A DNA stretch of 64,000 nt from NCBI GenBank assembly GCA_039621445.1, contig CP154954.1:9708641-9772640 (forward strand). Direction: 5' to 3'. Position numbers and translations under genes: made by a program. This DNA is from Euglena gracilis (Eukaryota). Each line of letters opens with the position of its first letter. Position 1 is the stretch's first letter. The notes under the pieces are model-generated. The model worked only from the letters and a program-made list of their open reading frames with translations. It did not search any database and was not told where the DNA came from. This document shows positions 1,021 to 43,600 of the stretch, one piece after another.

Positions 1021-3165
1021 TATCATTGAACCTCTCGGGGTCAGTGTCCATTGTCAGCATCACACAAATTCAGGCAGCAGCCATTGGGAGGGGCTTCGCA
1101 GGAACCCTGGAAGCCGTTGACTGATTGAACTTTAAAATACGCTGGCCAGGGTTTTTTTTAGCCTTGGACCCCGGGGGGGGGGGCAGGGTGGGTGGGTCCG
1201 GCCGATCCCCCCCCCGGGGATACACTTTTCGGCGCTGAAAATTGTTAAAAAAGTGCTATTTTTGGCATTTTTCGCTTTTTTGGCCATTTTCAGGGAAAAG
1301 TGAGTGGGTCTTCCGGGACCCCCCCTGGTCTTAAAAAAAACCCCGACGCTGGTGCGATGCGCCGGTTCCACCCTCCTTCCTGGGCACTGTCCAGCGGCCA
1401 CCGTCATTTGTCCTCCTCTCATGAAGGCCGTCCCCCTCGAGACGTTCCAGGCCCACCTCCACATCGTCGTCTGGTGGGTCCTGTTGACCCATGAGCACCG
1501 GCCAGGTGTTTCTTTCTTTTTTTTTGAGAAACTTCCCCATCTTGATCTCAGGGATCCAGTGTGTAATGAAAGCGGGCCTTTTTTCTTTACACCCTGACCC
1601 AACCCGATTGCGAAGCTGTCCTTCTGCACTCTCGCTGACTTGTCTGGAGGGATCAACAAGCCCGGGTGCGAAGCATGCGCTTCTGTACCTGCCATGTGAC
1701 CCTGCCTCGGTCAACGGGAAGGTGACCAGCTCCTCGTTGTCCGCCACATTACTCGTTTCAACGGCCACCGCGCTCCCAGCGAAAGCCCCCTGCCCCCAGC
1801 GGCTCAAGGCCGACAAGCCGGTGAAGGTCCCGCCGGTCTCCGTGGACCTGTCCCCCCAGTCGTTCTTCGACGTGTTCGCCCGCCTCCAGGCCCGCATGTA
1901 CAACCCGCCCTCCGGGGCTTTTTTGCGTGCTCCGTAGCGATACACGTGCTCACACGGTGAGCACGGTAGTATCACTGCCGGGCTCATGATACGGCAGCAT
2001 CATGAGCACGGTAGATGCTCATGATGCCTACCGTGCATCATGAGTAGCTCGGTACTACTACTACCGTGCTACTGTTTTTTAGGCATGGCTGTGGCTGCGA
2101 CCGGCACGGCTACAGCAGCGGTGTAACGGAAGTATTGGCACAGGGAACACAAGTGCTTCTGCCCATTCCCCCCTTTCATGTATCCATGGGGAACCTTCCC
2201 CCCCCTTTGTCTTTGCACAGCTGGTCTATGACACACGGGGTACAGTGCATATGACACGGCGTATCCATGACATCCCCCTTGTCAACCGCATTTTCCCCGT
2301 ATTTTGGCGTGTCAAGTACAAGGGGGGGGGAGTTAGCTGACTGGATTTGGGTTTTTTTTCTGTCTGACGGGTTTTGGAAACTCCTCTATAGTAAATTTCA
2401 GATTGGGGGGCAAAGCATTGTGGTGGGTGGGGGGCATGGTGTCGCATAAATCAAAGTGGACCCCATTCGCAACCAGCAGCTCTTTTCCAGCTTCGGACCC
2501 CCTCCCCCCATTGACAAGTTTAAATTTGTTTTTCAGTCACCCGAAGGTTGGCTGGGCTGCAGCAGTTTTTTTTCCCTTCTGGTTGTGCAAAAAAAAATGA
2601 GCGAAAACAGGTCTATAAGGATGGCCTGGGCAAATTTGGGGTCGAAAAATCCATATTTTGCACACGTCGAAGTTCTTTTGTTCACTTTTGACACGTCGAT
2701 TTTTTTGGTACATTGGTTGACCCTCAGTCGGGCCACTTCCAGCCAGGGGCCCTGACAAGGGGGCAGGGGGGGGGGGGGGGGCTGGGGGGCTCGAACGGAT
2801 TTGGCGCAGAGCAGGACAGGTTGGCGGAAGTGCGAAAAATCATGCTTTGGTTTGGGCTTCTGTGCGAGCAAGTGGCCTTAGAGATGACGTGAAAATCCAA
2901 CTTGTTACGCGAGAGTCCTCAGCGGCCTGGCGCCCCCCTGCAGCTCCGCCACCGCCCTCAGCGAGTCCCTCCTGCAGCTGAAGGGAGACCTCGTGGCGGC
3001 CATCCAACCCAGGTCCTTGCTGAAGGACGCTCCCTCCGGTCCAAAAGCGGCCCAGCGGAACTCTCGGCAGGCTTCCTTCCTTTTCAAAAATGGGTGTTCC
3101 GCAGAAAAACGTCCTGCCCCCTGCTCCCCAACGAGTCTCCACCGACTCATTCAAACAACGTTGAT

Positions 3166-3196
<31 letters not shown>

Positions 3197-3387
3197 ATTA
3201 TTAAACATATATGTGTGCCATTATTAACTATCTATATGTTGTTATTGTTATTGTTGTTGTTGTTGTTGTTCTTGTTGTTGTTGTTGTTGTTGTTTTTGTT
3301 TGTTGTTGATATTATTATTATTATTACTATTACTTATTATTATTATTATTATTATTATATTATTATTATTATATTATTCTTATTATT

Positions 3388-3442
<55 letters not shown>

Positions 3443-3456
3443 TATTATTATTATTC

Positions 3457-3532
<76 letters not shown>

Positions 3533-6500
3533 ATTATTATTATTATTAATATTATTATTAATATTAATATTATTATTATTATTATTAAAACAATATGTAT
3601 CACTCATATTATTTTATTGTGCATTTGTACCGGTGGCACACTCATGTGCTATTGGCCCGTTCGTGGCGCATTTCTGTGCCATGGACAGGGGGTCGGGAGG
3701 GCCCCTGGTACTGAGAATGCCAGCCCGAAGCCCTCACCCTTGATGGTGGTCTGAAGCACCGGCCTGGGCTCGGCCCTTAGCCACACGCAGGGCTGTCCGG
3801 GAATCCATGCAGCCCTATCGGTGGTGGGGGGTCGGACCGCCCCCCCCCCCCCCCCCCGCCCGGCCTTCCCGCACAGCCCTGGCCCCACGCGGGGGCTGTC
3901 CTCCACCGGCCGCCGCACCCATGCCGCCCACATGCAGGCGTGCACCCACCTCGTGCGGGCCGCTGTGGGCCTGCTGGCGGAGCACTGGGAGCTGCCGGAG
4001 GCTCGGGCAGGGGCGGACGGATCCCCCTGAGGGGTTGCGCCATGCCGAAGTGTTCCCGGGTTTCCCCGGGATCCCTCCAAGTTTCTTTGAGCTGTTGTTG
4101 TTGACTGATTTTTTTACAGTTTTTTTTATTGATGCTTGTGCGTGCAAATGTCGCATGTGATGGCTTATTTCCTGTGTGTACGCACATACAACACAAAATG
4201 GAAGGTTCTGTTCAGTTTAGGGGAAAACCAATCAACGTTGGGCTGCAGGTGCACTTCTTAAGTGATTCCCAAATTATTTGTTGATCACTCAACGGCCGGG
4301 GGGGGGGTCGTGGATGGGTGGGTTTTCAAAAATAGTGGGTGGGGGTTTGGGCCAGGGGAAAAATGCCCACCCCTTGGGGAGTCACTAAAAATATATTCCA
4401 GAGCTTGTCACAGGGGAAAAGCAATATTTTCTGAAATCTTTTGTTGTTTTTTTTTTTGCACAACCGCGACATTCATCTTGACAAGAGGGCCCTAAAAGGT
4501 ATTTTTTTTGGGAAATGGGGTTTTGAGTTCTGTTGGGAGCCAATTTTCTGACACAAAACTCTGAATAACAGCCCCCCCCCCCAAAAAAAAACAGCCCCCC
4601 CAAATAACATCCCCTGCCCGAGTTTTTAATTGCGTGTTTGAATAATTACCCATGGGGCCATTGTTCGGGGGGTGGGTAACAGTGGCGCCGGATGTGACAT
4701 AAATGAGCAATATTGGTTCAACACATTGCGGCTGGACGAAATGGTTTTGTGTTCAAAATGCTTCCGCTGATTTTTTCTTTCATGTTGTGTCTTTTGTGTC
4801 CAAGTTTTCGAAAAATTCAGAAGCAATGCAAGCAATATTTTTTTTCATTCAGACCAAACCCCCCCCCCCCCCCCTTGTCGTACGACCACCCCTCATTTAC
4901 GACCACCCCCCGGTCGCAGGTTGCAGGAACCCGGTCGTACGACAAGGGGGGGGGGTGGGTAATTTCAGCGAAACCGCGCCGTGCGCCACACGATGTGCCC
5001 GGTGTCGTGCAGGGTGTGCCACGCGCGGCGTTGGCATTGCCCTGTCCGGGTCCTCCCCTGGCTCAGGCAGCTCCAGCGGGAGTTCAGCCGCCTGCAGAGC
5101 TTGGAGGCGGAGGGGGTCGATCCGCCGCCGGAGGTCGAGGCCGTGGACGGTCTGGTTCCCAGGGCGTCTCTTTGGAAGCAGAAAGTTGTTTCCCATTGTG
5201 TCTGCTGGCAGATCACAGGGAAAATAGAGGCTGAATTTCCAAAAAAGGTCAATTTCCAAAAAGAGGTTGAAAAAAGGCAGGGTATCAAAAGGTTTTTTTT
5301 CTTTTCAATTTTGGATATTTTTGTGCGCATGTATTGTTTTTTTATCACACTTTTACACAACTGCTTCCGTCCCAGAATTTTCTCGACCCGAGTTAGGATG
5401 GGAGCATGGGCAATTGGTGAATCTGGTTGGGCCTCTCCCTGATAACCTTGATGCCATCCCTTCTGATAAAAAGGACAACAGTGTAAATTGGCAGATCCAA
5501 ACGAAAACAAAATATCGGAAAATGCAAACATTAGGGTGCATTTTCGAAACGTATAGATATCTCTTTGGGGTCAAATGCAAGCATTTTTGAGGTAAATTGT
5601 ATGCATTTGACAAATACCAAATAATAACCCTGTCCTCTGCACTACGGTGAACCAAACAAACAAAGAAGATAATCCAACAGAAAAATGAAAAATTGGAGAC
5701 CGTGGAAAGAAATCTGAAATTACAACAGAAAAGCACATTGGTGGTGCTGATGAAGCGCCTTTGACCATGAAATTTATGCGGGATTTTGTGGGATTATGCA
5801 GGATTGTGAGTTTTAAGCCCATAAAGCTCGTTGGACCCACCCACCCACCCACCCACCCACCCACCCCCCTGGGGGAGGGACTCGAAGGGAACCAATTTTT
5901 GGGGTCAATTTGGGGTCCAAAAACTTGTGTTCTTCCCCTGTGTTTGGCGAAGCGCTAAATATAGAAAACCCCACCTCCGGCAGGGTACCCCCCCGGGTAC
6001 CCCCCCCCCATAAAACTGTCACCTGACAGCTGGCAACTTCCGAAACTGACACCCTGATGAGGTTGGGGGACTGGTCCAATGCATTCATACCCATTTTTTT
6101 GTGCAAAGTGGTAGAAGTTGTAAGAGATATTATTTTTCCCCAAAAATGAAGGTTTTTGAGGCAGGGTTTTCCGTTGTTTTAAGGTTTTTTTTAAATTCTA
6201 TGTTTTAATGGTGGGACAAGGGCCATCTGGGCATCGAATGGAGTCAAAAATTAAATCCCCATGTTCCAAATGTGACTGGATAAGTTTGTATGGACAATGA
6301 TCCAAGAATGCCTAAATGATTGCCGGAATGATGCCGGAGTGATTTTTTTCGCAGGTTTCTTTAAGACATTCACCCTACGAGTTTGCCAACTACCCTGGAA
6401 GTTGCCACCTCAAGCCCAAACCACCTGTCTTCTCATGGTGGAAAGTCCACCACAGGCCCCCTGGAAGTCATCACCTGGTAATATCACCTGCTTGCACTGG

Positions 6501-12195: not shown

Positions 12196-12675
12196 TGACA
12201 GACCTCAGCTGTTTAGGCCTCCCAAAGCCTCGGGGTTAGATATTCTGTGGGTTACAGGGGGGATTGTGGGGACTTTTTGGGATGAGGAGAGTCGGAAAAG
12301 GCAGTTTCCCACCGGTATGTGGACAGTTCGCCCAACGCAGCAACCGATATTTGGCTGAGCGAAAGGGGCACAACATTTACCCAAAGTGAACCAAACGTTT
12401 TTCTTTTTTGGCTTCTTGGGCCAAAAAGCTATGGGCAGGGTGATTGTATCGGCAACGTCGGCGAAAAAAAAAACGCCGCAACGACTGGAAAAACACTTTC
12501 CTAACCTCAAATCATGATTGGATTAAACAATGGAAGGAATGGACGGGAAATAGCAAATTGCACGTTTCAAAAATTGCACCCGCAACTCGTTTTGTGGCCA
12601 AAATTCTGTCTCCAGAAACATATGGATGGAAATTTTTATATTATATATAATATTAATAATATATAATGTCAGATA

Positions 12676-13597
12676 TTAATTTTTATAAAAACATGGAAAT
12701 TTCTGACAAATAACATTTGCATTCATACCCCGGGGTCCAGGTGCCACCCCCTCCCTCGGCAAGGGATGGCAAGCAGAGGTTTCAAAAAAAAAACAACAAC
12801 TCTGGTCTGAACCAGAAATGCTATGGGCGAAAGCAGAGCCCTCAACACGCATGGGCGGCACTCTCCGACCCCGGCTGTGGCACCGCAGACCACCTCACAT
12901 CACCGTGGTGGTGTCTGTGGAGGACAGGGGTTTTTCTTTTAGTCTTGGACCCCTGGGGGGAGAGGGGGGTAGGGTGGGTGCATGGCCGAGCCTCCCCTGG
13001 GGGGTCCGCACAGGGGGGGGGGTATACTTTTCGGAAAGCGCCGAGAATTTTTGAAAAAGGGGCTATTTTAGCATTTTCCCAACTTTTTGGCCATTTTCCG
13101 GGAAAATTGAGTGGGCATGGTGGTGGCTAATTTGTCACCCCTACACTGATACAGTGCAGATAAACGTCAGAGACAATCATTATGGGAAGAATTACAGGAA
13201 GAAAAATCATGGGAAAAATATTATATTTGAACTTTGAGCTTCAGAGATTTTCTAAAGCCGTGTCCCCTCCGCTAATAGGATCAAGGACAAAGCCTCGGGT
13301 GCAGCACGTCAGACACAATGTGCACCTGAGGTTTTGTTTCCGTGTGAGTGTGATGGTCAAACCACACTCAAATGTGTAGTGTGTGGCGACCGTGCCTGTG
13401 ATTGCATTTCTGATCACGCCACTGTAGTTTGACCCATTTTCCAATTGGACAGCGATTGGCCGATTTTGGATAAGCTGCAGTCCAGGGAGGAGGTACTGCA
13501 AATTTGTAGGCAGAGTTCTGAGTGGGAAAAAATGACGGGAGACAAAATGATCTAATGGGAGATCAAGCTGTTTATTCAGCATTTCCCCCCTTTCCAT
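12676..13597 (-). CDS. Sm/LSm-fold RNA-binding protein (LSm4/SmD-like)
   Basis: Minus-strand exons 13495-13391 (YLLPGLQLIQNRPIAVQLENGSNYSGVIRNAITGT, Sm1 motif), 13325-13294 (VHIVSDVLHP) and 12874- (SRGRRVPPMRVEGSAFAHS, Sm2-like), joined by a GT-AG and a GC-AG intron in phase. Start ATG at 13597 or 13582 and the C-terminus are uncertain. Confidence 0.6.
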
Positions 13598-13965
13598 CCA
13601 GTGTACTACCTTTCCTCCACCCTTCAAATGCGCCATCTACATGGAGGACGCCTTGCGACGGCTGTAATCCAATACACCATAAGCAAAGTCCCCCCCCAAC
13701 CGGCCTTTTTTGCTCTATCTTTGTCCTCCCCATACCCCCTTGCTGCTTCTGTGCATTGTGTGATAGCCGGTTTGGGGGATAATTTTGCGCACTGTTTGAA
13801 GCCCATCAAATTTTTTTCCAGTGCTTTGCGTCGGTTTTTTTTTGACGCAAGGGGGGAGGGGCGTCCTGGACCAGCCCCCTCCCCCCTCCCCCCCTCTCAC
13901 TTCATGCCCTGCTGGGGAGTGAGGTCGCTTCCACCCCAGCAATTCTTGATTCTTGAATGAATTGA

Positions 13966-14072
13966 TTCTTGGGATTCTTGGGATTCTTGGGATTCTTGGG
14001 ATTCTTGGAATTCTTGGGATTCTTGGGATTCTTGGGATTCTTGGGTTCTTGGGATTCTTGGGATTCTTGGGG
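13966..14072. repeat. 9-bp tandem repeat (TTCTTGGGA)n, ~12 units, between divergent genes
   Basis: Direct reading; source of the GIL/GFL/PKN repeat ORFs. Confidence 0.95.
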
Positions 14073-14133
14073 TTCACGCGGCGGCCCCTGCCGGCGGCAG
14101 TTCTCGCACTCCTCCACCACGGCGCGGGCCGCC

Positions 14134-17100
14134 ATGGCCCAGCTCCAGGCGGGTGACGTGTTCGTGGCGCACGAGTGGATGCCCCCCGCGAAGTACCGCC
14201 GCTACCTCGCGAAGCAGCGGGTGTGCCCGCCGACCCCAGCGATAGATGGCAGGGGGGTCCAGACCACCCCAGGGCAGAACAGGAATCGGCCAAACAGCCA
14301 GCGTGGTGGGTGGTGGGGGGGGTCGAACCCCCCCACCACTTCCCGTATTTCCGGGAGCACCAATTTTTGGACCCCAATATTTTTTTTGGTGCCTTCGGCA
14401 CTGAGTGTATTTTGGACCCATTTTGGGACCCATATGGGAGGTCCCCCCAAAAACCCTAAAAACCCCATTTTTTTTTCACACCTTCCAAAATTTTAACATT
14501 TTCTCAAAATTTTGATTTGAGAGGTTTTGAAGCAAAAAATGCTATTGGAAATGCAAAAAATTTCCAAGAGAAAAAATGTCAGTGAATTACTGTGCCAAAA
14601 TTTGGTCCATTTTTTTGACCTGCATTTTTTTTGCCCCCCTCCTAAAAACTACCAATTTTTAAACCTGAAAATCCGGAGTTTTTTTTTTGTGAAAAAATGT
14701 GGTTTTGCATCAAAAAATCATGTATTTTAGATTCATTTTTCAAAATAATTTCAAAAATTTTCCCCCAGCCAAAATCCCCGTTTTCCCAAAGTTCAAAGTT
14801 GGTGGAAATGCTGTGGTGGGTGGGGGTGGGTCGACCCCCCCCCCTCCCGGGTGGGGGGTCGACCCCCCCACCAGGCCTTCCCGTTCTGCCCTGGACCCTC
14901 CTCCCCTAGATGTTGTAAGGGGGGTCCGGACCCCCATCCCCTCCTCAGCAGGTTCCAAAAATAGAGAATTTTTTCCTCCGGTGCTGCGCGCCAGAAAATG
15001 AACCAAAAATGCCCCCTTTCCTTTAACTTTGAGCATATTGCCCATCTTTTGATGTTTTGGTGTTTTCCAGATAAAATGTTCAAAGAATTTCAAAAAATCT
15101 GCATTTTTGGGTTAATATTCAAATAAAAATCAATGATTTTTGAACAATTTTGGTCGATTTCCTGCCCTTGCATAAAACCGAAAAAATTTTCGGGCCCCCT
15201 CAGTTTCGAGGGGGGGTCCGAACCCTCAAGGCTTCCCAACTTCCCCTTTCCATTTAAGACACACGGATGGTCACAATTTTGGAGAGTGGTTTCGGACACT
15301 CAGGTGTGTTCGCTTTTTTGGATTTCATTTTTGGAGGCTCAGGGTCAGGGGTTTCAGGGTCAGCCGGAGGGGACCCTACCCACCGGGGGGGTCCAGCCAG
15401 CCAGCAGCTCAAATCCAGCCAGCAGCCCAAATTCAGGAGGGTCAAGTGAAATAAAGTTGGGTCCAGCCCGGCCGGAGGCCGGGCCAGCCAGCCGAAGGCT
15501 GGGTCAGCCGGCCGGCCGCAGGCTGGCCAACCAACTGGGCTGCCCAGCTCACCTATCCCTGCATTTTTTTTCTCATCACAGCGTCCTCTATCACAGCCCC
15601 CCAGCCTTGATCTAGCTCCATCCATCAAAATGTCGAGAAGGCAAAAATGTGTTAGAAATTTTTTTTTCATCGACCAAGCCCAGCAGCCCCCTCCAGCCCC
15701 GGACCCCCCCCCCCTATCTCCCTGGGGGGTCCATCCAGCAGCTCGTTTCCAGCCAGCAGCCTTTTTGCCAGCCGGAGGCTGGACCACCCCCAGGGGGGGG
15801 GGTCCTTAAGAAAACCCCTGCTCAGGGTGTGGTACCCTTCAGACGCTGAGCACTTAAATTGTAGGGGCAGTTTACACTCCGCTCCACTTTCTTTGACGTG
15901 GCATCGTTCCACAGTTTTTCGGGTGGTCATTTTTTCTGAAGGTAGTTTCTTGCATGTGTCTCATACAGCTGTGCTCAAACCTCGCATGGCAATGAGCGGG
16001 ACTTTACATAGCAACCCTCAGGTGGCCAAAAATGATAAAAAAGTGGCCCAAAATGGCCAAAGGTGGCCAAAGACACTTAAAAGTGGCCAAAAGTGTTCTA
16101 AAATGGCCAAAAAATGGTCAAAAGTGGCCAAAAAATAGCAAAAACAGCCAAAAATGTTCATTCCTCCCATGTATTGTCAGTTTTCCGTCGATCTGGGGTC
16201 CATACCCCCTTGCCTAACGACCCCCCCCGGGTCGGAGATGAACATTGGCTATTTGAGCGACCGCCCGGTTGGAGACGAACATTGGTGGTCGTTGGACAAG
16301 GGGGGGGGGAGAACGACGGAGTGTACCAATCTTCCAGGGATTTTCTTTGCATTTTTTTGGTTACAGGTGTTTTAAGGGGCAAAAGGGATGCAAGCATTTC
16401 TTCAAAAGAGATTTTTAATGGCGATTTGTGAGAGCCACAAAACCACAATCATGCAAAAAGCAAAAGTGGAGCACACATGATGCACAAGCAGGTGGAAATC
16501 GTGCAGAGTAACCGAACAGTGTTTTTCAAGTGAATGTCAGATTTGTATTAAATTTATGTCTTTATGTGCATTTTCCTACCTCCCTGCCAACCAAATTTCC
16601 TCCCTATAGTTTTTTACCACCTTTCTCTTTTTGTGTTTTGTCCACACAGTTTCATGTTTACAGTCCGGACACAAATGACGAGAAACAAAAATGATGGAAA
16701 AATGATGGGAATTTTTTAATTTGGGAAAATTAATGATGGCAAAAATAAATTTGTCATGGAAAACGGCGGTAGTTTTTCCACTGGTGATGATTTTTTTTTT
16801 GGTAAAAGGGAGTTCAAAGTTTCAAACTGGTGGTCTTCTGAGTGTGAACAAGCTCCAAAAATGGTGTCTTCTGGGGTGTTCTTTTGTGATTTTCTTCGAA
16901 CAGACCCCAAATTTGACCATATACCATACCCCCATCTTTTTTGTGTGTGAAATTTGACTGCCCCTGAATGTGGCTCCTCCAAAAGGGCATGGGTGGAAAA
17001 GGTGGGGGGGGGAATGATGGAAGAAATGATTGGCAAGGGGCACTTGATGATTTTTGTTTTCTATTTCACTTTTTCTGTGCAAAAGGAACTTTGGAAATAC

Positions 17101-21891: not shown

Positions 21892-21927
<36 letters not shown>

Positions 21928-27700: not shown

Positions 27701-27793
27701 GCGAGGGGTGGCCCGCTTCTGGTCCTGCTGGCACCAGAACCGCTAAACAAACCTGACCAACATCGTAATTGTTTTTTTTTAATATGAAATGTA

Positions 27794-27984
27794 CCCCCCC
27801 CCCCTTGTCCTTGAGATGGCTGGTCCATGGCACCCCCTCCCCCCCCCGTGTCAACCGCACTTTTTCCGACCCAAAATGCCAATTTATTATGGTACAGTGC
27901 ACATGACATGGCATGTCCATGACACCCCCCCCTGTGTCAACCGCATTTTGCCTGTACTTTGGCGTGTCAAGGACAAGGGGGGGG
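27794..27984. mobile_element. TA-flanked MITE with CCCCCCCCTTGTCCTTGA TIRs; related fragments at ~2230-2330 and ~6525-6620
   Basis: TA|CCCC...TTGTCCTTGA ... TCAAGGACAAGGGGGGGG|TA; the internal TGTCAACCGCA motif is shared between copies. Confidence 0.7.
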
Positions 27985-28537: not shown

Positions 28538-31500
28538 CTGGCGATGTATGGCATGTCCGTTTGCGTGTATCTGAGAGTATCTGGCCTCCCCTCCCCCCTA
28601 TGCCGTATTCCATCGAAGTCGGGATCAAGTCCGGCGTCACCACCCCCGGTGCCAAATTCTACCTTCTGGACGTCTCCACACAGCCATTTTGCACTCTTTG
28701 CTGTCCCTTGTTTGTGCATCACTCTTGAGCGCTGCTTTCCCGTCGCTTTCTAAATGCTTTCTCACAGTTCCCAAATTACCCCTTCCGTCCACGACAATGT
28801 GTCATTCAGAATGCAATGGGATTGGGTAAGTTACATGCCACTTGCACCGTCGCCGTTTTTTTTCCTTGCATTCAAATTTTTTAATTTTCATTTTTTTGCG
28901 TAGCGCATTTTGAGGGGCATTGTTGCATCCCCCCCCATGAGTATTCCCCTTCAAACCACCTGCTCTGGATGGGATGGGACGCTTTTGGTAGTGGGATTGG
29001 TGTGCTCACCTCGTCAAGTGGTTTCCCTGGCGGTACACGCCACCAAACGGCTGCCCGCAGCTTCCAGGAGGTCGTAGCGAAGTACGAGTCCATCGTGGCC
29101 CGCATCGTAGCCTGGCAGCCGCCGCCCGCCCGGGCTGGTGGTCTGGGGGGGGGGGCGTATCAGGGCGTAGACTTGTTAGCACTGTATTTGTAGCACTGTT
29201 TTGCATACCCCCCACATGCCCTCCCCAGGAACAACCCGGGCTGCCCAAACGACAGCAAAAAGCCCCAAAATGCAAAGGAAAAGGGGAACTGCTTTTATGG
29301 GCATTCTTGTTTGGTTTTGAAAATTTTGTTGTAATCTACAAAATATTTACCCCGCAGTCTAATAAAAGTCGGTGTCCAAATAATGAACTAAGAGTGTTTT
29401 TGTTTTGGTGGATTTGTTTTGTGCATTTTTTTTCCACCAAAGGGCACATATATCTGATTGGTGCATAATTTGAGGTTTTCACAGGTTTTCAGTTGCAAAT
29501 TTGTCCATTCCTGAATAGCTCAGCTTATTTTTGACTATTTTAAGATATTCCCACACGTTTGGGATTTTTAATTTTGGTCGTTTTGGGCAATTGTAAGCCG
29601 TTTTTTTTTTAGCAATTTTGGGTAATTTTCAGCCCCAAATGACCCTATGAATGGCTTTTGCCAAAAAATGGCCCCAAAAATGGTCCTGACTAAAATGGCC
29701 CCCAAATGGCCCGAAGATGGCCAAGTGTTCGAAAATGGTCAAAAAAAATGGTGGAAAATGACCGATAACAGCCCGAAATGGCCCTTTAAATGGGCCCAAG
29801 ATGGCCGAAATGACTTTGCAAGAGGGGGTCCGGAAAATCGCCAATTATGGCATCAATTGCATATTTTCCGCGTATCCACATGTCCACATTCACACACCCC
29901 TGTCCCCGTCACGTCACGCAGGGGAGGGTGGGCATCTGTCCAGGAAATCCACTTTCCAAGTATGTGCAACTGGCCCCGCCTAGCTGTAAGGGTCTCCGGC
30001 TGGCACGGCAACAATTTCCCTGGGGGAGGATGGCTGTGCCCCACCGGCCCGCCTCCGAGCCCCCCTCGGAGCCCCCTGCCACGTCCAGGCAAGGACAGCC
30101 ACCGGATCCCACCGGATCCCACTGGAGATTTTTTCCCATGCACATATTTTTCTGCTGGATTTATGGCCCCATAGTCTCATGCTGCAAAGAGGGATGCAGA
30201 ACAACAGGTTGCCTTTTTATGATTATTCAAAAGACCCTTTCCTTCAGGTTTAAACAGGTTGCAGGATATGATTCGCGATGACCAATATTTGGTGGCCATT
30301 GGGGTGGATGAAACCGGCGGCCCCAGGGTGAGTACATCACATCATGTTGTGATCCCACGTGGCGATGGGGCAAAATATTTTGAGCACCTGGCTGGGCCAT
30401 TAAACAGAGCCAAAAGGTGCCTCATGTGGGACAAAAAGGAGGCCAAGATCCTGACCCCGGGGGCCATGCATGTGGTTATGCTGTGCACCAACTGCATGAT
30501 GCAAAAAGAGTATCCGGTCAGATCGCCTTGTTGGATGTTTTTTTCCCAGTCCCCCCCCCAGGGTTGTATGGGGAGCTCCGCAGACATGAGGTAGGTGGTA
30601 GGGGGGGGTCACCCCCCCCTTGGGGGGTAAGGTGGTAGGGGGGTCCCCCCCCCCCTAGTTTCGGAAGGGGGTCCTCCCCCACCCCCCTCCCCTTCCTCTG
30701 GGGGGGCAAAAAAATTTTCTGGCGCTTCGCGCTGGGACTGTATTTTAGGACTTTTTTGGGGGCTCAACGTGAAATTTTGGCAAAATGGCCAAAAATGACC
30801 ATAAATCGGGACAGGTGGGGAGTTGCCAGGAAATCAAAATACTGTTAGATCTGGCATTTTAAGGGCTTCAATTTAGGTTTTGGACATTTCTTTTGATTCA
30901 CCACCATTTTTGAGAAATTTCAGAAAAATTGACCTTTTGACCCCCAAAAGCGGCCGAAATTTCGGCGACCGAAAACTGGAGGTAGGAGGGGGGGGTCTCC
31001 CACCCCCCTCCCCTAGTTTCGGAAGGGGGGGGGTCCCCCCCTCGGAGATTCCCATACAACCCTGCCCCCCCCCCAAGGCAACCCACCGGAACCCACCGGA
31101 GACCAATAACTGGGGATGACTGTCTTTGCCTGGCCACGTCCACCACGCCGTCGTCCGCCGGCGCGCGGCTGAAGGGGGCGTGGCGCCGCGCCACGTCCCC
31201 GTTCCGGTCCGCGAGCCGCGAGCGCAGCGCGGGCAAGTCGCCGTTCTCCCGGCGGCGGTCGCAGACGCCCAGGGTGGGCCGGGCCGGGCCGAACGACAGC
31301 CTCGTGCAGGGGTGGGAAAGGCCCATCGACTCAACTCACTTCTTTTACTCATGCTCCTCTCATTGCTCAACCATGCAAGTTCCATACTCCCCCCCACCCC
31401 CAGGCAATTGACCCCCGGGCAATTGTCACCCCTGGCTGTGCCGGCCAATTTGTCACCCTGGGAAATTGTCACCCCCCCTCTGTGCTGCCCAATTTGTCAC

Positions 31501-34500
31501 CCCCCATTTGCAGCATTGTTCTGTGATCTTCTATTTCGCTGCAATGTGCTGGAATTTTTGCATACCAAACGCTCTGCACAATATCGCGATCGTAGCTGCA
31601 TTTTCCCTGCGTTCACTTGTGTTTCAGATGGTGTTTTTGGCCATTTGGTTTAAAATGTGGCTTACATGGGTGGGCAATTGACGCCCCCGAGCAATTGACG
31701 CCCCCAGGCAATGGTCACCCCCCTCTGTGCCGGCCAAATTGTCCCCCCGGGAAATTGTCACCCCCGTCCGTGCTGCCCGATTTGTCGCGCGACAATTGCC
31801 TGGGGGGGGGGGGCGGGTATTTATACATATATTATATCATATATATTATAAATAAAAAAGATGAATAAAATATATTATTATACATAAAATTATATATATG
31901 TATTATGTTTAATTTATTGTATTATATTATATATTATATTATATATAATATGCATATGTTACATATATAATGTTTTCTGTTTCTTGTCATCCACCAATCC
32001 CGAATCCTGAATCCTTCCACCCTCACCCTTTGAGTTTTTTTTTTGTCATGGAACTCGAAACTCTGCTTTCGACGGAGTCGACATCCCCCAATCAGACCGA
32101 CCCAACCACCGTTACGCCTGCTTCCCCTCTGGTGGTTTTTTTTTTAGTCTTGGATCCCCTCCCCTGGGGGGGGGTAGGATGGGTGGGTCTTTTGGACCCC
32201 CTCCCCCCCGGGGGGGGGGGGGGCAGGGGATGGTGGGTATATCTTTTTTCGGCGCCGCAGGCGCCGAATTTTTTGAAACCGTGTTAAGTCTACGATGTAC
32301 ACCGGCCGTGAAAACCGTGTTCAGTCCACGTGTTCAGCGGTGGAAAACGTGTTTGTAACACGCTTTCCGTACAATGTACATGTGTTACCAAAAAGTGTAA
32401 ACACGCTTTCCGTACAATGTACACGTGTTACCAAAAGAGTAAACACGCTTTCCTGCAGTGTACACGTGTTACCAAAAAGAGTAAACACACTTTCCGTACA
32501 ATGTACACGTGTTACAAACACGGTACATTTGCATTGTTCCGTGTTATAAATGAAAAATATTCTGTAGGGTTACAGCATAACTAGAATGCATGAAACGATG
32601 GACATACTGCTCAACGGAAGCAAGAAGCAACACGGCGGCGGGAAGTTGGTGTATTTGGGGGGGGGTATGCAGACGCATGCTGCAAACACCTCGTGGCCTG
32701 TTGGCCAAGAACAATAGCACATCATGAAAGGCATCACAAACATCCCGGGCATTTCCAGGGACGTTTGGGAGCTCGGCACAGGTCAGCACACACAAAATGG
32801 TAGGTGTCCGCACAACTCACACAAGGAACAGACCGAGCTACGTCGGAGGTGGTGGGGAAGCACGTTTTCGTCACCATAGGGGCAAAGAAAGCAAGGAATT
32901 TGGGGAATTGAGAAGCAGAGGAGGCCACAATTGGAGGTCCGTCACGGTCTGACACTTTATACAAAAAAACAAGGGCATTGAGGTATGTACGGAAAGACAA
33001 AACAGGTATGGAACGAACCCGAAAATCTGTTCCAGCTCTCTCCGTACGGGCAGCAACGCAGGCGACTTGTTGCTCGGGTGTCGCGTACAACACCCGAGCA
33101 TCAATGCACCAGCGGGCCCACCCCAAAAAACAGTCGTCCAACGTCGCGTGTTGTACCCCATGGGCTGCGCAAACCCCCATGTATTCTGTAAAACAATTCA
33201 GGGCAGCCATGCGGTCGCGACGGTAATCTTTTGCCGAGACCAGATCTGGGGGGGGGAACAAAGCATCAACTTCCTCAGATGGAGATTTCACCTTTTGGAG
33301 GGATTCCACAAACTGCTTAACAGTGGGAGGGGCAGGCATGCGGGCCTCAGCGAGGTTAGCCAGGCGCATCATGGCTGTGAAGGGTGTGAAGGCGTTTTTG
33401 AAACACGTTTTAGCATAATGCACACGTGTCACCAAAAGTCTAAACACGCTTTCCGTAAAAGTACACGTGTTACCAAAAAAGTAAGCACGCTTTCCTGCAG
33501 TGTATACGTGTTACCAAAAGGAGTAAACACACTTTCCGTACAATGTACACGTGTTACCAAAAGAGTAAACACGCTTTCCGTACAATGTACACGTGTTACA
33601 AACACAGTACATTTGCATTGTACCGTGTTTGTAACACGGTACAATTGCAATGTACCAAGGTACCCCATTTTTGTACACGTGTTTATTATAATCGGCATTT
33701 TTTTGCGCGAATCACGTGGACTTGAACACGGTTTTCACTACCGGTGTACATCGTGGTCTCTTAACACGGTTTCAAAATTGTTTCGTGTTCTGATCCCGCT
33801 TTTTTACCAGGAAAACCGGGGGCGCCTTCGGCGCCCCCGGTTTTCCTGGTAAAAAAGCGGGATCAGAACACGAAACATCTTATAGAAATGGATGCTATTT
33901 TTAGCATTTTGGCCATTTTCGGCCGAAGTGGGTGGGTCCCCTGGGACCCCCCCCCCCCAGAGGGGAGCCCACCCCAGGGGGTGGGTGGGTGGGTACCGAC
34001 CCCCCCCCCGGCTTCAAAAAAAAAACCCTGTTCCCCTCCCCACCTACCCCCACTACACATTCACCCCAGGCCGCACCCTGCATGCACCAGAGAATTCAGA
34101 CGCGAGGCAGCAGGAGAAGCCGATGCCCCCCGCTGGCCGATAGCGTCTGCAACCCTTGTCCGTGGAGTGCATGGGAGTTGGGGCTGGGTGTGAATGCCGG
34201 TTTACAAGGATAGCCGTCAGGCCCTCATTGACCCCCCTCCCCCCGTCCAAGCACCATCCTTGTCCAGGCACCACCCCGCTGTTTCTTTCCCATGGTTTTA
34301 AAGGTCACATCCTCAGGGAGTGTTTTTTTGTGTGATTTACGGGGATCATCCTTTGGGTTCCGCCACAAATAAAAACAAACAAATAAACAAATACGTAAAT
34401 AGATAGATAGATAGACAAATCAAGCATAAATGAACAATTTGTTAAATAGATGCACAAATGAAGGAAGGAAGGAAGGAAGGAAGGAAGGAATGAATGAATA

Positions 34501-34634
34501 AATGAATGAATGAATGGATGAATGAATGAATGAATGAATGAATGAATGAATGAATGAATGAACCAACAAACAAACAAACAAACAAACAAACAAACAAACA
34601 AAACAAAGAAAGAAATAAATAAAGAAAGAAGAAA

Positions 34635-34677
<43 letters not shown>

Positions 34678-37600
34678 AGTATACATGTACACACACATAT
34701 ACATACATACATACATACATACATACATACATACATACATACATACACACATACATACATACATACATACATACATACATACATACATACATACATACAT
34801 ACATACATACATACATACATACATACATACATACATACATACATACATACATACATACTACATACATACATACATACATACATACATACATACATACATA
34901 CATACATACATACATACATACATACATACATACATACATACATACATACATACATACATACATACATACATACATACATACATACATACATACATACATA
35001 CATACATACATACATACATACATACATACATGCATATATGTATATATATGGATATATGGCAGCCTCCAACTAAAGTCTCCAACTATATATATTTATATAT
35101 ACCCGCCCCCCCCCCCGGGCAATTGACGCCCCCGGGCAATTGACGCCCCCAGGCAATTGTCACCCCTGGCTGTGCCGGCCAATTTGTCACCCTGGGAAAT
35201 TGTCACCCCCTTCCGTGCTGCCCAATTTGTCACCCCCCCCCCCCACAGAAGATGTTTGCGAATTTGCTTTTCGCCGACACGACTCGATTGATCCTCTATT
35301 TCGCTACAACGTGCTGAGAAATGTCACATACCAAATGCTCTGCACAATATCACAACCAATAGCTGCATTTTTGCGTGTTCACTGGTGTTTCAGATGGTGT
35401 TCTTGGTCATTTGGATTTCATGTGGCCTACATAGGTGGGCAATTGACGCCCCCGGGCAATTGACGCCCCCGGGCAATTGTCACCCCCCTCTGTGCCGGCC
35501 AAATTGTCACCCTGGGAAATTGTCACCCCCCTCCGTGCTGCCCGATTTGTCGCGTGACAATTGCCGGGGGGGGGGGGGGCGGGTATGGCAGGTGAGAACT
35601 TTAGGACCCCCTGGGGGGGGGTCCTAAAGTTCTCACCACGATGGCCACCCCCATTATTGAAGGAGTAGGGTTAGGTGCGCACATGCAATGTTGTGCTAAT
35701 TGGCTATGTTGCGCTACATGGCTATGTTTGCGCAACATAGCCATGTAGCGCAACATAGCCAATTAGCGCAAATTAGCATGTGCGCACCTAACCCTGCTCC
35801 CTCAATAATGGGGGTGGCCATTGTGGTGAGAACTTTAGGACCCCCCCCGGGAGGGGGGGTCCTAAAGTTCTCACCTGCCATATATATATATGGATATATA
35901 TATATATATATATATCCATATATATGGACATATATATATATCCATATATATGGATATATGGTTATATGGTGATATATATATATATATATGGATATATGAT
36001 ATATGGATATATGGCAGCCTCCAACTAAAGGGACCCCCCCCAGGGGGGGTCCCTATAGTTGGATCAGGGGGCGGCAATTTTTTTTTGTGTTATTGATGGA
36101 ATAGGGTTAGGTGTGCTATTCTGGCCTAACTTCAGGCCTAACTTGTACACCTAACACCCGTCTATAAGTTGGGCCTAACCCTAACCCTAAGTCGCGCACC
36201 TAACCCTATTCCATCATTAACACAAAAAAACTATTTTGACCCCCTGATCCAATTATAGGGACCCCCCCCTGGGGGGGTCCCTTTAGTTGGAGGCTGCCAT
36301 ATATATGAATGAAAGAATAAAATGAATAACTGCATTCACAATCGTTCTCTGGCTAGTTGTGGAAACGGATGGTGGGCGTCCAGCGGTGGCCGCGGTCGCC
36401 CCGCCGGCCCCCAAGCTGCCTCCCACAGGCCCTCCGGCATCCAGGGTTGACCGGGGTCGGAAGCATATGGGTGTGAACTGAACTGGGGGGTCTGACCTCC
36501 CACAGGTATTATTTGGGGGAGTTTGGAATTTTGGGCACTGGTTTCAAAGTCAATATTTGGTCAAATATTTTTGTGAAACATTTTTCTGACCAGATTTCGT
36601 CTTTTTTTTTTGATCTTGCCATACTTTTTGGTGGTTTTTATTCACGCACTGCTGAGGGGGGGTATTGTATGGGCCACCGAAGTCGGGCCTCGGGGGGGGG
36701 GGGGTTATTTGGGGGGAGTCACCGTTTCCGGCGTTCACCCCACATTCTGGCAACATTAGCAAGTGATGCGCAAGGATGGGGTGGAACACTAACAATGTCT
36801 ATCGGTCCATCGGGCCTGAATTCAAGCTTGAGTTCAATCCAACGGGGGTGTTATTCTTTGGGTTTGCCGTAAATGGATGATGTGATGTGGGACTCCCCAC
36901 GTGGAATGGGCAACACGTGCAGTCGGGCTGACCCCTTCAAACCTTTCCGACGCCCCTGCCCGTGAAGCCCGCGGGGCCGACCTCGCGACCTCCCGCGGAG
37001 CCTGGCAAGCGACCCCAGTCGCTTGCCGGAGCCGCCGTGGCCCCCGTCGAAAGCCAGCGCCCCCCAGTGGCTGTCCCCCCCGAGCAGGGGCATGGCGCTT
37101 CTGGCACACACACATTTTTTTTTGAAAATATATATTTTTTATATTATATACTCATATTTATATATACATTTTTGAACATGAATTTCAACAACTGTCGCTC
37201 CTCGAAGCATTGAACGCCCCCGCCCCCCTTTGGGGTTTCCAGTCGCCTTCGTGTTCCGGAAGCCCCTTGGGCTGTACTGGCGGACTTGCCATGTTGGAAA
37301 GGTATCACCTGGGGCCGCACCTGCTGAGTAACAACGTCGAAAATGTTTTTTGATGCCTCTCACGGGGGATCAGGATTTTTTTTAATTCATTTTTGCGTAA
37401 ATTCGGCTTGCTCGACTGAATACAACGTGCGTGCGTGCGTGCGTGCGTGCGTGTGTGCGCGCGTGTGTTTGTGTGTGTGTGTTTTGCCAAAACCTGACAT
37501 GCACCTCCAAATAAATGCAAGACACACGTCCCATCATCAAAAAAGATTTTATTTGGGTCGAAACTAGGTTCCCCAAAAGCTGTCATCCCCCCCCCCCCTG

Positions 37601-40600
37601 AAGTTACCACCTTCCATTCCCGGACTCGTTGATTTGCAATGTTGGGAAGTTGTTACCCAGGCTTGTGCTCAGGTGACAGCTTTATGGGGGGCAGAGCCAT
37701 GCGCCCTCCCCAGGAACACCACTCTGCGATCGTCTATTCCACCAACCCAGAAATCTGGAAATTGTCAACTGGACTTGCACTCGCCGACATGTCTCCAACT
37801 TCACAACTTCTGGCTTCAGGGGTGCGCACTTTCCCACTGTACTCAGCAATTTTTTTGATTTTTTTCATTAAAATCGTGTTTCCTCTCTCATAGGGCTTTT
37901 TAGGGGCGGAGGATAGTCTTCCGGGTGCCAGCCAGGGTTGAATCCCATTGAGTTTGCCTGGAGATGGCCCACCCGGGAAACTGTCGGAGTCGTCGGCACC
38001 GGCCAACCTTGCCATCATAGAAACCCATCAGGGTGCCGGTGTTGACCGACCTGTGAGGTGACAGTTTCCGGGGGAGGGGTGGTCGGTACCTAATTGTCGG
38101 CGGATTTCGACCTGCAATGCGATCAGCAGACTGTGCACTATGCATCATGGTAGGTTTTTCGCGATTTTTGCGATTTTTTTTTGCGATTTGTTTCCGCGAC
38201 TCCACACGGTCGGGTGCGGGACTCGGTCCGGCGCGGCCCTGTACCCGCCGCCCCCCGGGGCCCTCCCCCCCGGCCGGCGCCGGTGCAGACGCAGCCAGAG
38301 CCGGTGCTGTTTGAGGAGACGATGGTCGTCATCAAGGACGTGGGGCACCCGGGCCGGAATGAGGTCGCGTGCGCCACGGTGACGCCCACGCGCCTGGAGC
38401 TGGTAAAGTCCGACGGGCAGAGCCCGGCCTCTTGGTGTTATTGTGTCGGACCCCTCCCGTGCGCAGAATTTGAGAATTTTTGACCCCCTTTTGGTGTTTA
38501 TTTGTGCCTCAGGGTTTTTGAACCTTCAAGGGAATTTGATGAGGGATTTGTAGTTCAGTTTAAAAGGCATTTTTCAATGCAATTACTTTGTTTTTTTGCT
38601 AAATTCCAGTTTGGCGCCTTTTTTTTATGTGGGTCAAGGCAAATTTATTACCCCCCCCCCCCGGGCAATTGACGCCCCCGGGCAATTGACACCCCCGGGC
38701 AATTTTCACCCCTGGCTGTGCCGGCCAATTTATCCCCCCGGGAAATTGTCACCCCCCTCCATGCTGCCCGATTTGTCACCTCCCCCCACAGAAGATGTTT
38801 GTGGACTTTCTTTTCACCGACACGACTCAATTGATCCTCTATTTCGCTACAACGTGCTGAGAAATGTCACATACCAAATGCTCTGCACAATATCACAACC
38901 ATAGCTGCATTTTTGCCTGTTCACTGGTGTTTCAGATGGTGTTCTTGGCCATTTGGATTTAACGTGGCCTACATGGGTGGGCAATTGACGCCCCCCTCTG
39001 TGCCGGCCAAATTGCCACCCCGGGAAATTGTCACCCCCCTCCGTGCTGCCCGATTTGTTACGCGACAATTGCCCGGGGGGGGGGCGGGTACCAGAAATGC
39101 ACAAAATGATAAATAATGATAAAATCTGAAATGATGTTTTTTTCCCCAGAAATCTTTCTGTTCACTGGGATGGGTTGTGCCCCTGTTTGAATTTCCATAG
39201 AGGGGGATTTTACCTTTTTTTTGGATGCCAAATGGAAGCACCCAGGATGAAGGGTTTGAAATAAAAATTTTATTCTCAGAGGTTGTAAATGGGGAGATTT
39301 TTTTTGTTAGGGAGGTGCCTTGTGCCTTGCTCAGACTCAGGGTTTTATTCAGCAGGGACCTTACCCACCGGGGGGGGAGGTCTAGCCAGCCAGCACGTTT
39401 TTCCCAGCCCACAGCTCCAAGCCGGGCTGCAGGACACCGCCCCTGCCCGGGGGTCCGCTGAAACAAAGTTTGGGTCAGCCCAGCGAAGCCAGGCTGGACC
39501 GAAAATTCTTGTAAAAGGTGGCAAAAAATGAATGGCATTTTTGATTTTTTGGGGGGGTTACTTCCATATTTTGGCTGAAAAATGCCAAACTGGTTGTTTT
39601 TAGAGCTCTTCTGCCATTTTAGTGGACACCAGCCAGGTTGCCTCTGCTTTCGGGGCACCAGAAGGTCCAGTCGCCCCGGCTTGACCCCCCCCCAGGCTCA
39701 CCCAGGGTTCCAGCCAGCACCCTTTTTTCCCACCTGGCCGGTGGGACCCCCCCCCCTGAGTGTTCAAGAAACCCCTGCTCAGAATTATACCTGCAGTTTA
39801 TCCGATATTTGACATGATAACAATAGAGAAAGAGTCTTTTTTTTATAGATGTTTTGCTCCATTCTTGATGTTCAACATAAGTGCCCTCGAGCAAGATATA
39901 CTTCAGCAATTCCGAAGAACATGAATTGCAAAATTGCATCGTTACATCACAACGTAAATTGCAAACGTTACCATTGCACAGTACCAAAGGCTGCCAGCGC
40001 CTCTCTGTCCCAATCAATGAGGTGTCTATCCAACCCTCCCTTGTGATCGCGGTTTGTCTTCTCACAGACTGGGGGTAGGGTACGAGGTGAGCGTTTGTTT
40101 GCAATGTGGGAGGGAGGTCTGACCCGCCGGGTCCTGACCCCCCTTTGGAGCCGTGATACGTGGAGATTTGGGCTTCCAGAGAACCCCAGAACCAAAATTT
40201 TATACCCTGCCGCTTGCATGTCCAATGTTTTCGATATTTTCTTTGATTGCTTTGAAAGCAACTGATAACAGCAATGTGGTTTTCTGCAGGACTGCAGTGG
40301 ACAGCATGCACCCGTGAGGACTTTTTGGGTGAGGGGGATCAAGCTTTGATAATTTCTCAGTCTCATTGCCAGATCCCTAGCAACAACACCATTTTTTCTT
40401 CCCCTTCAATCCCCTAAATATTTCGCGACACAGCCGTCTGCAGTATGTGGTTTTTTTTTGGAGAGGGAGAGTCGAGGAAATGTCAACACACCCCAAACAG
40501 CACGGCCGACATCTTAAGAGTTACGTTCGATGCATAATTCTAAAGTTTTCCGATAGTTGACATGGATTAATATTTATGCGGCACAGAACCCAATGGCTCC

Positions 40601-43600
40601 AACGGGTTTAACAAGTTATTATCCTCGCATGGGGCAGGGATGTCTGTCATCACAGGAATTTACAACGATCCCGGAAGTGGCTGGCCTGCCAGGGAGGTTT
40701 GTTCCCTGGTGAGTTGCCTGACTGCACCTCTGACTTGTCCTTTTGGGAAACCAGGAAACCCAACCAGGCCAGCCCCGAGAGTTGTCATACAGGTGTTCAC
40801 AAATTGAATTGTCAGGTGACAATTTCCGGAGGAGGGCAAGCGTAATAAAAACGAAACTCACACCCAACAGAGCATTAATCTGGAAAGAAGGCTACAATAT
40901 GTTTGGCCAAATGTGGGAGTTGTGGGGGTCATTTGTGTCTCAGGAAACCCCCAGCTGGGAGGTGCAGCCTTTTTTCGGTCGAGCGATTTCTGATGCTGTG
41001 AAAGGGCGTCTGGAGAGAAATGCTTTTGTATGTAACAGAGCGTAAACCAAACCAAAAGATGGGGGGGGACAGGCAGTGGTCATTTTCCAGCAAGCCCATT
41101 TTGTTTCAAGCTGCTTCCCCCCCCCCTCCCTAGTCTCAGTCCGTTTCCTCAGTCAGCCCAGTCACACATGACAGGGGTGCGAGGGGGGGGGGGGTGGCTC
41201 CCCTGATGTCAGCCACAGGCGAACCGCGGGGGCGTACCCCTTCGACAGCCGCTACTTCCAGGTGTTCCACAAGCACCACCGGCTGATCCACTTCTTCTCC
41301 TCCCGCACGCCCACCTCCGCCCATCGCTGCCCCGGCCCTGGCGGTCCAACGAACGGCGTGCGTTGATCAGTGCCATGTGGGTTGGCATGGACGATGTGGG
41401 GCCGGAGGAGGGCTGTCATCAACGACAAATGTGCCCATCATTCCAGGGGCAGCGACGATGCGGGGCGCAAGAAAGGCAGTAAGGAGTGGAGGGGGAGGGT
41501 GCAAGCGCACCAACAGGAGTTTTTTTAGTCTTGGACCCCCCTGCCCCCCCCCCAGGGGGGATATACTTTTCGCACCAAAGGTGCCGAATTTTTTGAAAAG
41601 GTGCTATTTTTAGCATTTTCGCAATTTTCTGGCCATATTGGGGGAAAAGTGAGTGGATACTCCGGGACCCCCCCGGTCAAATATGAAAGAATTTCAACAC
41701 CAATGAAATGGCCTTCGTTTTTATGTGGCCATAAGTTCATTGCTTCTCTGTGGTTGTTGGCATCGCGCGTTGTCCCCTGTCGGGCCCACCAACCTGGGGG
41801 CGATGGCCTCAACCGGTTCCGGCAGCTGGTGGCCGGCCCGGCAGGGGCGCCCCCGGATGCGCACTCCATGTGGAGCCGCCTGCAGCTGGAGCAAGGCCGG
41901 GCGTTGGCCAGGGGCTGTGACTGATTCAGTTGTGAGTGTGCGAACAAGTGTGTTCTGCGTGGGGGAGGAGTGGTGGTGAGTGTCTGTGCAACCTGGCGCG
42001 TGTGCCAGACATGCTGTCTGTATTGACGGAAGCACAGAGATTGGGAGAATTATTTTCAAGTCAATACTTTTCAAGCCAAGTGTAATAAATTTTCAAGCAC
42101 CGAAATAATCGGCAATTTAATTTTGGAGTGTTTTGTGAAGGGATTCGGTGCTGTTTTACTGTCCAATGAACAGTTTGGTTGAAAGACATGGTCGTTGGGC
42201 ATGTGCAATTTCTGCTCTTATTTTTCTTCGACACCCCCAAAACAAAGAATTTTCTTCCCTGGCGCAAGGTCATGTTCATCTGTTTTTTTGCCAATTTTTC
42301 AGAAAATACTCCGGGGCAGGGTTTGATATAAGGAGGGCGTACATGGTTTAGGTGGGGGGGGTGCCCCCCCCCCCCCCCCCCCCCCTCCTGGCCCGCAGGG
42401 GGGGGGTCCGGACCACCCCCCCCCACCTGCCAGGGGGTCCGGACCGACCCTCGGGGGGGTTCCCGGGACCCCCCCCCCAAAAAGGGTCAATTTTTTCCTC
42501 CGGCGCTTCGCGCCGAAATTTTTTTGCATTTTTGGCACATTTTTGCCCAAAAAGTGCCCAAAATGCGCCGGGCCGAAATTCGGCCACCCTGACCGCGCAC
42601 CTGTTTAGGTGGGGGGTGTCCCCCCCCACCCCCCCCCCCCCCTTGCCCCCAGGGGGGGGGGGGTCCGGACCACCCCCCCCCACCTGTCCTTATATCGAAC
42701 CCTGCTCCGGGGTGCGTTGCTAACAACCAATTATTTCGATATATTTTCCAGCTTAGTTCCAGATTTTCCTTTGCACAGGAGGAGGAGTTGACCCACCCAG
42801 GGGGGGAGCAGGGTCCGGAAAAGGGTCCTTACCGTGGTTCTGATGTCCACCTGTGGATCCAACCCAGCTCACCCGTGATCGCACGCAAAATAATCATTCA
42901 AAAAGAGAACCTCTGAAATCCTCGAAACCTCCGAAAAGCGAGGTTTATGATTTCTGCGTGTCCCATTTTGTCTCGCATTCTGCACCGTGTTCGGCTTAGA
43001 CACGGCGATAGGCCGTGTCTAACGCCGTCCGTGGGAGCCCCCGGCTCCACCCCCCCCCCCGGCACCTGCCCCCGAGCAGCCCGAAGCCCGCCTCGCGCGG
43101 GGCAGCCGGGGCCGGGGCCGCCACGCCGGCCAGCCCCGTCGACGTCCCGCCCCCACCCCCGCCGCCCCAAGCCCCCTCTCGCACGCCGACCGCCGTCGCG
43201 GAACCGGAGGCGGGGGCGTCCTGGCCGCCTCCGCCGGCGTTGCCCGGGGGTCCCATGTCCCCTCCCGGTTGTTCACCCCCCGAAGAGAACCAACCTCCCT
43301 GCCATGGCGGACGGGGTGACAACAATTTGCTCCCTGCCCAGTTTTGGTTCCCACCTGCTGAACTGCTTCTCTGATGTTGACGTTGAATTGTTTTCATCTG
43401 TTCCTTCTGGCTCTGCCTTTTATTCATTTTCTGCATCTCATGTGAACAAAACCTGCATGTATGGCACATAATATAGTTCCCTCCTGCACACCAATCGAGG
43501 ATATTGTTGAAAGGATGTTTTATTTGTAATTATATCTTGTGCCTCGTTGGTGCTTTGGCACTAGCACTTAACGATCCTGTGTTGTTTTCTCTGACCATTC

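Follow-up and report, generated by a model that had tools for sequence, protein, structure and literature searches.

Euglenid nonconventional introns, which in the available part of a recent study make up 71.8% of all introns in E. agilis, follow an experimentally defined code, 5'-N3CDG-/-CH'GN5-6|R, in which the 5' spacer is strictly 3, the 3' spacer is 5 with 6 tolerated, and both a purine at the start of the downstream exon and pairing after the CAG are needed (Nomura et al. 2025, PMC12501133, as far as the available text goes). In the same portion of that study, wholly artificial 50-bp inserts carrying CAG/CTG, 12 complementary bases after the CAG, 3/5 spacers and the purine were spliced from a foreign exon, and such an insert is in effect structurally a miniature transposable element with inverted repeats (MITE). 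Here we compare this system with a stretch of 64,000 nucleotides of the Euglena gracilis genome (assembly GCA_039621445.1, contig CP154954.1, positions 9,708,641 to 9,772,640; hereafter the window), which holds a group of transposons whose CAG...CTG tips and 8-bp target-site duplications (TSDs) have the spacing of that code. How euglenid nonconventional introns originate and are removed is a question that has stood since the 1990s.

An origin of these introns from MITEs, which a sequence-only reading of the window had thought might have been suggested before, was indeed proposed in 2014, by authors who noted that euglenid genomes had so far yielded no transposable elements, and was restated in 2016, 2024 and 2025. 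The 2024 review already calls the CAG/CTG terminal inverted repeats (TIRs) and the junction repeats TSD-like (PMC11282704). In the full-text literature, with subscription papers and supplements outside reach, we found no paper naming a source family, a TSD length or a superfamily, none tying the 8-bp length to the hAT superfamily, none equating the sum of the spacers with the TSD length, and none describing a free-standing euglenid MITE family with these ends.

Transposons that became introns are known from other eukaryotes. The introners of Micromonas and Aureococcus are likewise elements with TIRs and TSDs that turned into introns on insertion, the TSD helping to restore the exon (Huff et al. 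2016, in the part available), while the introner elements of Amoebophrya have inverted repeats of 8-20 nt and, at non-canonical junctions, direct repeats of 3-5 nt (PMC7789003). The introners of Micromonas and Aureococcus are, however, spliceosomal and use canonical sites according to the portion of that work at hand, whereas removal of the elements in the window is predicted to follow the non-spliceosomal euglenid route, at fixed distances from a stem that sum to the TSD length.

Transposons with CAG...CTG tips and 8-bp duplications

The window contains a dense set, at least seven in 64 kb, of non-autonomous cut-and-paste DNA transposons with CAG...CTG tips (mostly CAGGG(G)TT), TIRs of 9-18 bp and TSDs of exactly 8 bp, which group into at least two or three families and include one nested insertion and several decayed copies. 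These transposons are real, and they are new as described objects. The sequence-only reading had named five of them (E1-E5), all of which were found where it placed them, each with an 8-bp flanking repeat identical at 8 of 8 positions in three cases and 7 of 8 in two. The CAG...CTG ends claimed for all five are present at both ends in three, whereas the last bases of E1 are CCG and the first of E3 are TGG. A joint scan for TIRs and flanking repeats, described below, added five further pairs (N1-N5), and related fragments were also located. The elements are listed here with their outer coordinates; no strand is assigned to any of them.

E1 with TSDs, 1139-1353: 199-bp MITE at 1147-1345; TSD ACGCTGGC/ACGCTGGT; ends CAGGGTTTTTTTT and, as reverse complement, CGGGGTTTTTTTT; same family as E3.
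E2 with TSDs, 15338-15828: 475-bp MITE at 15346-15820; TSD CTCAGGGT, exact; ends CAGGGGTTT.
E3 with TSDs, 32122-34038: 1901 bp at 32130-34030, a long relative of E1; TSD TTCCCCTC, exact; 5' tip decayed to TGGTGG.
E4 with TSDs, 39330-39785: 440-bp MITE at 39338-39777; TSD CTCAGACT/CTCAGAAT; weakly related to E2.
E5 with TSDs, 42309-42712: 388-bp MITE at 42317-42704; TSD CTCCGGGG, exact; 17 of the first 18 bases match.
N1 with TSDs, 3780-3889: 94 bp and intron-sized, at 3788-3881; TSD GCCACACG/GCCCCACG; TIR CAGGGCTGT; flank rich in guanine plus cytosine (GC 0.73).
N2 with TSDs, 30078-31140: 1047 bp at 30086-31132; TSD GCCACGTC, exact; the first 13 bases, CAGGCAAGGACAG, match at 12 of 13; flank GC 0.77; N3 is nested within it.
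N3, 30551-31072: 506-bp MITE at 30559-31064, nested in N2; the first 12 bases, CAGGGTTGTATG, match at 12 of 12; flanks are C8, which makes the TSD uninformative.
Fragment of the E1 family, 12925-13115: 5' end intact (CAGGGGTTTTT), 3' end lost.
Fragment of the E1 family, 41514-41678: 5' end CAGGAGTTTTTTT, 3' end decayed.
E5-like fragment, 18711-18840: about 80% identity to the inner part of E5.
N4, doubtful, 36418-36502: 69-bp CAG..CTG pair; flank repeat 7/8, continuing 4 nt further; fold without an end stem.
N5, doubtful, 45710-47846: 2121-bp pair; TIR 9/12; TSD TGTCCAAC/TCTCCAAC; within the number expected by chance.

That these pairs exceed chance was established with a scan for CAG...CTG pairs lying 60-3000 nt apart, with TIR identity of at least 9/12 over the 12-nt tips and flank identity of at least 7/8 over 8 nt. 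Among 60,309 pairs, 879 reached the TIR threshold, 49 the flank threshold and 8 both, as against 0-2 joint cases when the flanks were displaced outward by 4-32 nt and a mean of 0.53 (maximum 4) in 100 second-order Markov resamples. The excess in the flank-identity histogram is confined to 7-8 of 8 positions (8 observed, where eight displaced controls average 1.1), and the length of the flanking repeat is exactly 8 bp, the next four bases agreeing at chance level. An unbiased scan, admitting any inverted tips and any exact repeat in the flanks, returned mainly palindromes of microsatellites; outside these, its only strict combinations of a TIR with an exact repeat were 30086-31132 and 42317-42704, both CAG-tipped and both with repeats of 8 bp.

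The elements are short (94-506 bp, plus longer relatives) and non-coding, are bounded by TIRs and TSDs and occur in several related copies, as expected of MITEs. Four copies or fragments in the window belong to the E1 family, E2 resembles E4, and E5 has a fragment elsewhere. Both ends are common to the 199-bp E1 and the 1.9-kb E3, as is usual for a short MITE and its longer relative. What had been put forward as an age series amounts to a loose gradient of TSD and TIR decay, and no paralogous empty site was found in the window. The E5 tip recovered 17 loci in a metagenome scan, none matching past 20-22 nt, and these were judged chance hits and rejected.

Most of E1, E3, E5, N1, N3 and the fragments have in common subterminal blocks made of G-runs, GGTCCGGACC-like sequence and C-runs (for example at 1190-1215, 3820-3870, 42395-42440 and 42650-42690), and N2 carries CCCACCGGA repeats in direct orientation near both ends. 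These blocks and repeats may be transposase-binding sites.

Assignment to the hAT superfamily, as proposed in the sequence-only reading, is putative and follows from the 8-bp TSD and the CAGGG (YARNG) ends; the window holds no transposase, so that the label is carried by structure. The hallmarks of the superfamily given in the available part of PMC3014272 are an 8-bp TSD and YARNG tips, CAGGGGTCC being an example of the TIRs and NTCTAGAN of the targets. Flanking repeats of 8/8 or 7/8 without extension past 8 are present in E1-E5, N1 and N2, and the YARNG tip in E1, E2, E4, E5, N1 and N3; N2 (CAGGC), N5 (CAGTT) and the decayed 5' tip of E3 do not fit it. Compared with an NTCTAGAN-like palindromic target, four of the five claimed elements have T2 and C3 and four of the five have G or A at position 6, in agreement with the purine reported there by the sequence-only reading; A7 is confined to one TSD copy at most, that on the right of E4. 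Among the seven credible elements, a small sample, position 3 is C in six and position 6 a purine in six. This preference is roughly symmetric and would provide the exon-start purine whichever way round an element lies. As portrayed in the available sections of PMC3014272, the non-autonomous hAT families of Anolis are similar in their 8-bp TSDs, YARNG tips, short TIRs, non-coding interiors and long and short members with common ends; the elements described here differ from them in having no transposase partner in the window, in matching the target consensus by half, and in the departure of N2 and N5 from YARNG. Mobilisation would presumably depend on a hAT-type transposase encoded elsewhere.

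Correspondence with the nonconventional-intron code

With CAG...CTG tips and an 8-bp TSD, three TSD bases necessarily stand before the CAG and five after the CTG. The arithmetic of 3+5 = 8 noted in the sequence-only reading is correct, and agrees with the 3-nt and 5-nt spacers and the downstream-exon purine of the experimental code. The motif, pairing of its middle bases and the purine are found together on the + strand in six of the ten elements (E2, E4, E5, N1, N2, N5) and on both strands in five of them (E2, E4, E5, N1, N2), and the predicted cut yields an exact one-TSD site wherever the TSD is intact. In minimum free energy (MFE) folds the stem begins at CAG:CUG in five of the eight elements folded, with nine pairs in the end stem of E2 and 18 contiguous end pairs in E5, while the fold of N1 has the expected end stem at z = -2.1. 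Two broader scans for intron-like stems were discarded as too permissive.

Published introns provide a further point of comparison. Intron 4 of gapC, recently gained and found in a single E. agilis strain (ACOI 323), has direct repeats of eight nucleotides at its junctions; in the available part of the report it is the one intron known as a recent gain, its repeats are longer than those of the other introns analysed, and intact 8-bp repeats are presented as an exception among known introns (Milanowski et al. 2016, PMC4770533). Intron 12 of L. spirogyroides tubB has nine possible positions (Milanowski et al. 2014, PMC3935182), which corresponds to an 8-nt repeat. In addition, the junction consensus is pyrimidine|purine (Y|R) at both ends (PMC3935182), as a duplicated target site predicts, and direct repeats occur at the junctions of 84.4% of all introns according to the portion at hand of Nomura et al. 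(PMC12501133). Relative to nonconventional introns as described by Milanowski et al. in 2014 and 2016 and in PMC12501133 (the latter two in part), the elements are alike in their paired CAG/CTG ends, in the 3 nt before and 5 nt after when the TSD is counted, in the purine that follows in most of them and in sizes ranging from tens of bases to kilobases. They are unlike them in having longer TIRs (9-18 bp), in forming sequence families, and in being known here from DNA sequence alone.

These correspondences suggest a mechanism in which an element inserts into a transcribed exon and its TIRs would form, by the published code, the stem that the nonconventional-intron machinery needs. The machinery would cut 3 nt before the CAG and 5 nt after the CTG, and since these distances add up to the length of the 8-bp TSD, excision would take out the element together with one TSD copy and leave the mRNA exactly as it was before insertion; TSD position 6 would supply the purine with which the downstream exon has to start. 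With offsets fixed at values that sum to the TSD length, each insertion would be spliceable, and harmless, at birth. We give roughly even odds to this account as a whole, namely that the MITEs are mobilised by a hAT transposase and removed under the guidance of the code, and that they or their relatives are the likely source of nonconventional introns. The chances are similarly balanced for its more general form, in which nonconventional introns are born when hAT-type CAG...CTG MITEs with 8-bp TSDs land in exons, the machinery acting as a transcript-level eraser of transposons. If true, the eraser reading would account for the Y|R consensus being duplicated, for the 'slidable' introns and for introns being gained rapidly at the level of strains. 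Judged from the offsets alone, the excised intron would have a 2-nt 3' overhang beyond the stem, which would point to a helix-measuring endonuclease with a ligase and not to the spliceosome.

The mechanism is a sharp, well-supported and testable refinement of a known hypothesis, but for this window it is an inference. With concrete CAG-tipped elements bearing 8-bp TSDs, and a spacer sum equal to the TSD length, the idea becomes a sharp test for existing genomes and transcriptomes. If it is true, introns would have been gained on a genomic scale through a non-spliceosomal pathway, and this would suggest that the pathway evolved as an RNA-level defence neutralising one transposon superfamily.

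Alternative explanations and points against an origin of introns from MITEs

Possible, if on balance doubtful, is that the elements, as ordinary hAT-like MITEs of non-coding DNA, bear no causal relation to nonconventional introns, the sum of 3 and 5 being coincidental. Several results weigh against an origin of introns from these elements, and some of them speak for such a coincidence. Among hAT elements, CAG tips and 8-bp TSDs are generic features, so that the match to the code could be fortuitous; lizard hAT families also have CAGGGG tips and 8-bp TSDs, as the available part of PMC3014272 describes. The elements lie mostly in AT-rich, apparently non-coding DNA, and the flanks of E1-E5 are AT-rich or mixed (GC 0.36-0.58) and not exon-like. 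No gene or intron was definable in the window, and the exonic placement or splicing of the elements is a prediction. Furthermore, the code is not obeyed by E1 (CAG/CCG) or by E3 (TGG); of the hAT target consensus half is present, T2 and C3 but not A7; and no hAT transposase was found in the window, none of the 331 open reading frames (ORFs) of at least 85 amino acids (aa) matching any transposase family in Pfam. Flank identities of 5-6/8 are hardly enriched (42, against 31 in displaced controls), so that no population of decayed relics is seen in the window.

Frame restoration was also found without a register signal. The sequence-only reading had claimed at least eight frame-restoring introns, for which it gave no coordinates; they were not recovered, no gene was found, and frame restoration turned out to be commonplace. 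At every 3' spacer from 0 to 8, the frame stays open for at least 45 aa on either side in 328-349 of 1150 CAG...CTG stems 30-400 nt long and in 350-367 of 1262 stems of up to 1500 nt, and a 3' spacer of 5 was not favoured, showing no excess over spacers 0-8. Whatever the register, a frame is restored by about 29% of CAG..CTG stems; since some three in ten do so by chance in this stop-poor sequence, frame restoration carries no weight here. ORFs joined over the predicted cuts do not look coding. The 331 ORFs gave no Pfam match at E<=0.001, and those of E3 matched no Pfam family; at a threshold of 0.01, one of 31 ORFs gave a weak RVT_1 match near 59.6 kb, with no other match anywhere in the window. 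A Pfam search of 20 chosen ORFs, together with ranking of ORFs by GC at third codon positions (GC3) and by amino-acid composition, produced no usable gene model.

Coincidence must, on the other hand, bring five features into agreement: the CAG, the CTG, the pairing after the CAG, the spacer sum of 8 and the purine at TSD position 6. It has also to accommodate the two published introns with 8-nt junction repeats and a Y|R consensus duplicated at both junctions. The claim that the elements have the geometry of nonconventional introns thus stands on the arithmetic, the code and the two published cases, whereas in the window no intron could be defined and no hAT transposase was found.

We regard as improbable that nonconventional introns arise through double-strand-break repair, or by some other non-transposon route that leaves short direct repeats, with the MITEs as bystanders. 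Break repair is the reading that the authors who described gapC intron 4 themselves give to its 8-nt repeat, in the part of PMC4770533 available, and to that extent their interpretation counts against an origin from MITEs. It leaves the conserved CAG/CTG inverted ends and the fixed length of the repeat unexplained, and mobile elements whose ends and repeat length are exactly these exist in the same genome. Least probable of all, and very unlikely, is spread by an RNA route (a circular intron with reverse splicing or reverse transcription) that would make the apparent MITEs retro-copied introns: excised nonconventional introns are reported as full-length circles (cited in the available part of PMC11282704) and a reverse-transcriptase remnant lies in the window, but the constant 8-bp TSDs, the long and short pair E3 and E1 with common ends, the nested insertion and the subterminal repeats are typical traits of DNA transposons.

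Other features of the window

Some 45 GC-rich islands of 150-560 nt (GC 0.62-0.74) are distributed over 1700-55400 in AT-richer DNA, with a spacing that resembles that of exons. Codon asymmetry of a coding kind was seen in one of the 32 islands tested (27571-27750, + strand, GC1/2/3 = 0.78/0.37/0.86), and the best codon-biased ORF, at 27533-27784, had no relative among longer proteins. ARAGORN reported a 94-nt tRNA-Gly (CCC) at 14813-14906 on the + strand, within a GC-rich island, which would need an intron at that length and may be a false call; an Rfam search of the window gave no matches.

Between 58300 and 64000 lies a retroelement remnant, with the weak RVT_1 match at 59585-59941 on the - strand and, at 60242-60511 on the opposite strand from that match, what we take to be a YLDD-like motif. 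The remnant is situated in and beside a large near-palindrome, the arms of which (60483-60660/63819-63996, 60886-61174/63306-63594 and 61480-61715/62739-62974) are 85-92% identical. As a guess, remnant and near-palindrome together might represent a tyrosine-recombinase (DIRS-like) element.

A repeat of 110-160 nt occurs in 31414-39086 and again at 53768-53878, in pairs about 3.2-3.4 kb apart (31655, 35100/35420, 38646/38928), a pattern that suggests a unit of about 3.4 kb duplicated in tandem, with E3, N4 and E4 at different places within it. Long compound microsatellites composed of (ACAT)n, (GCAT/ACGT)n, (GT)n(GCGT)n, (ATTA)n and (ATT/GTT)n are present at 34400-35070, 49700-50700, 54250-54950, 44490-44700 and 3150-3650, and this repeat-rich make-up, with its GT/GC and AT/AC microsatellites, is in keeping with how E. 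gracilis has been described in print, without being diagnostic of it.

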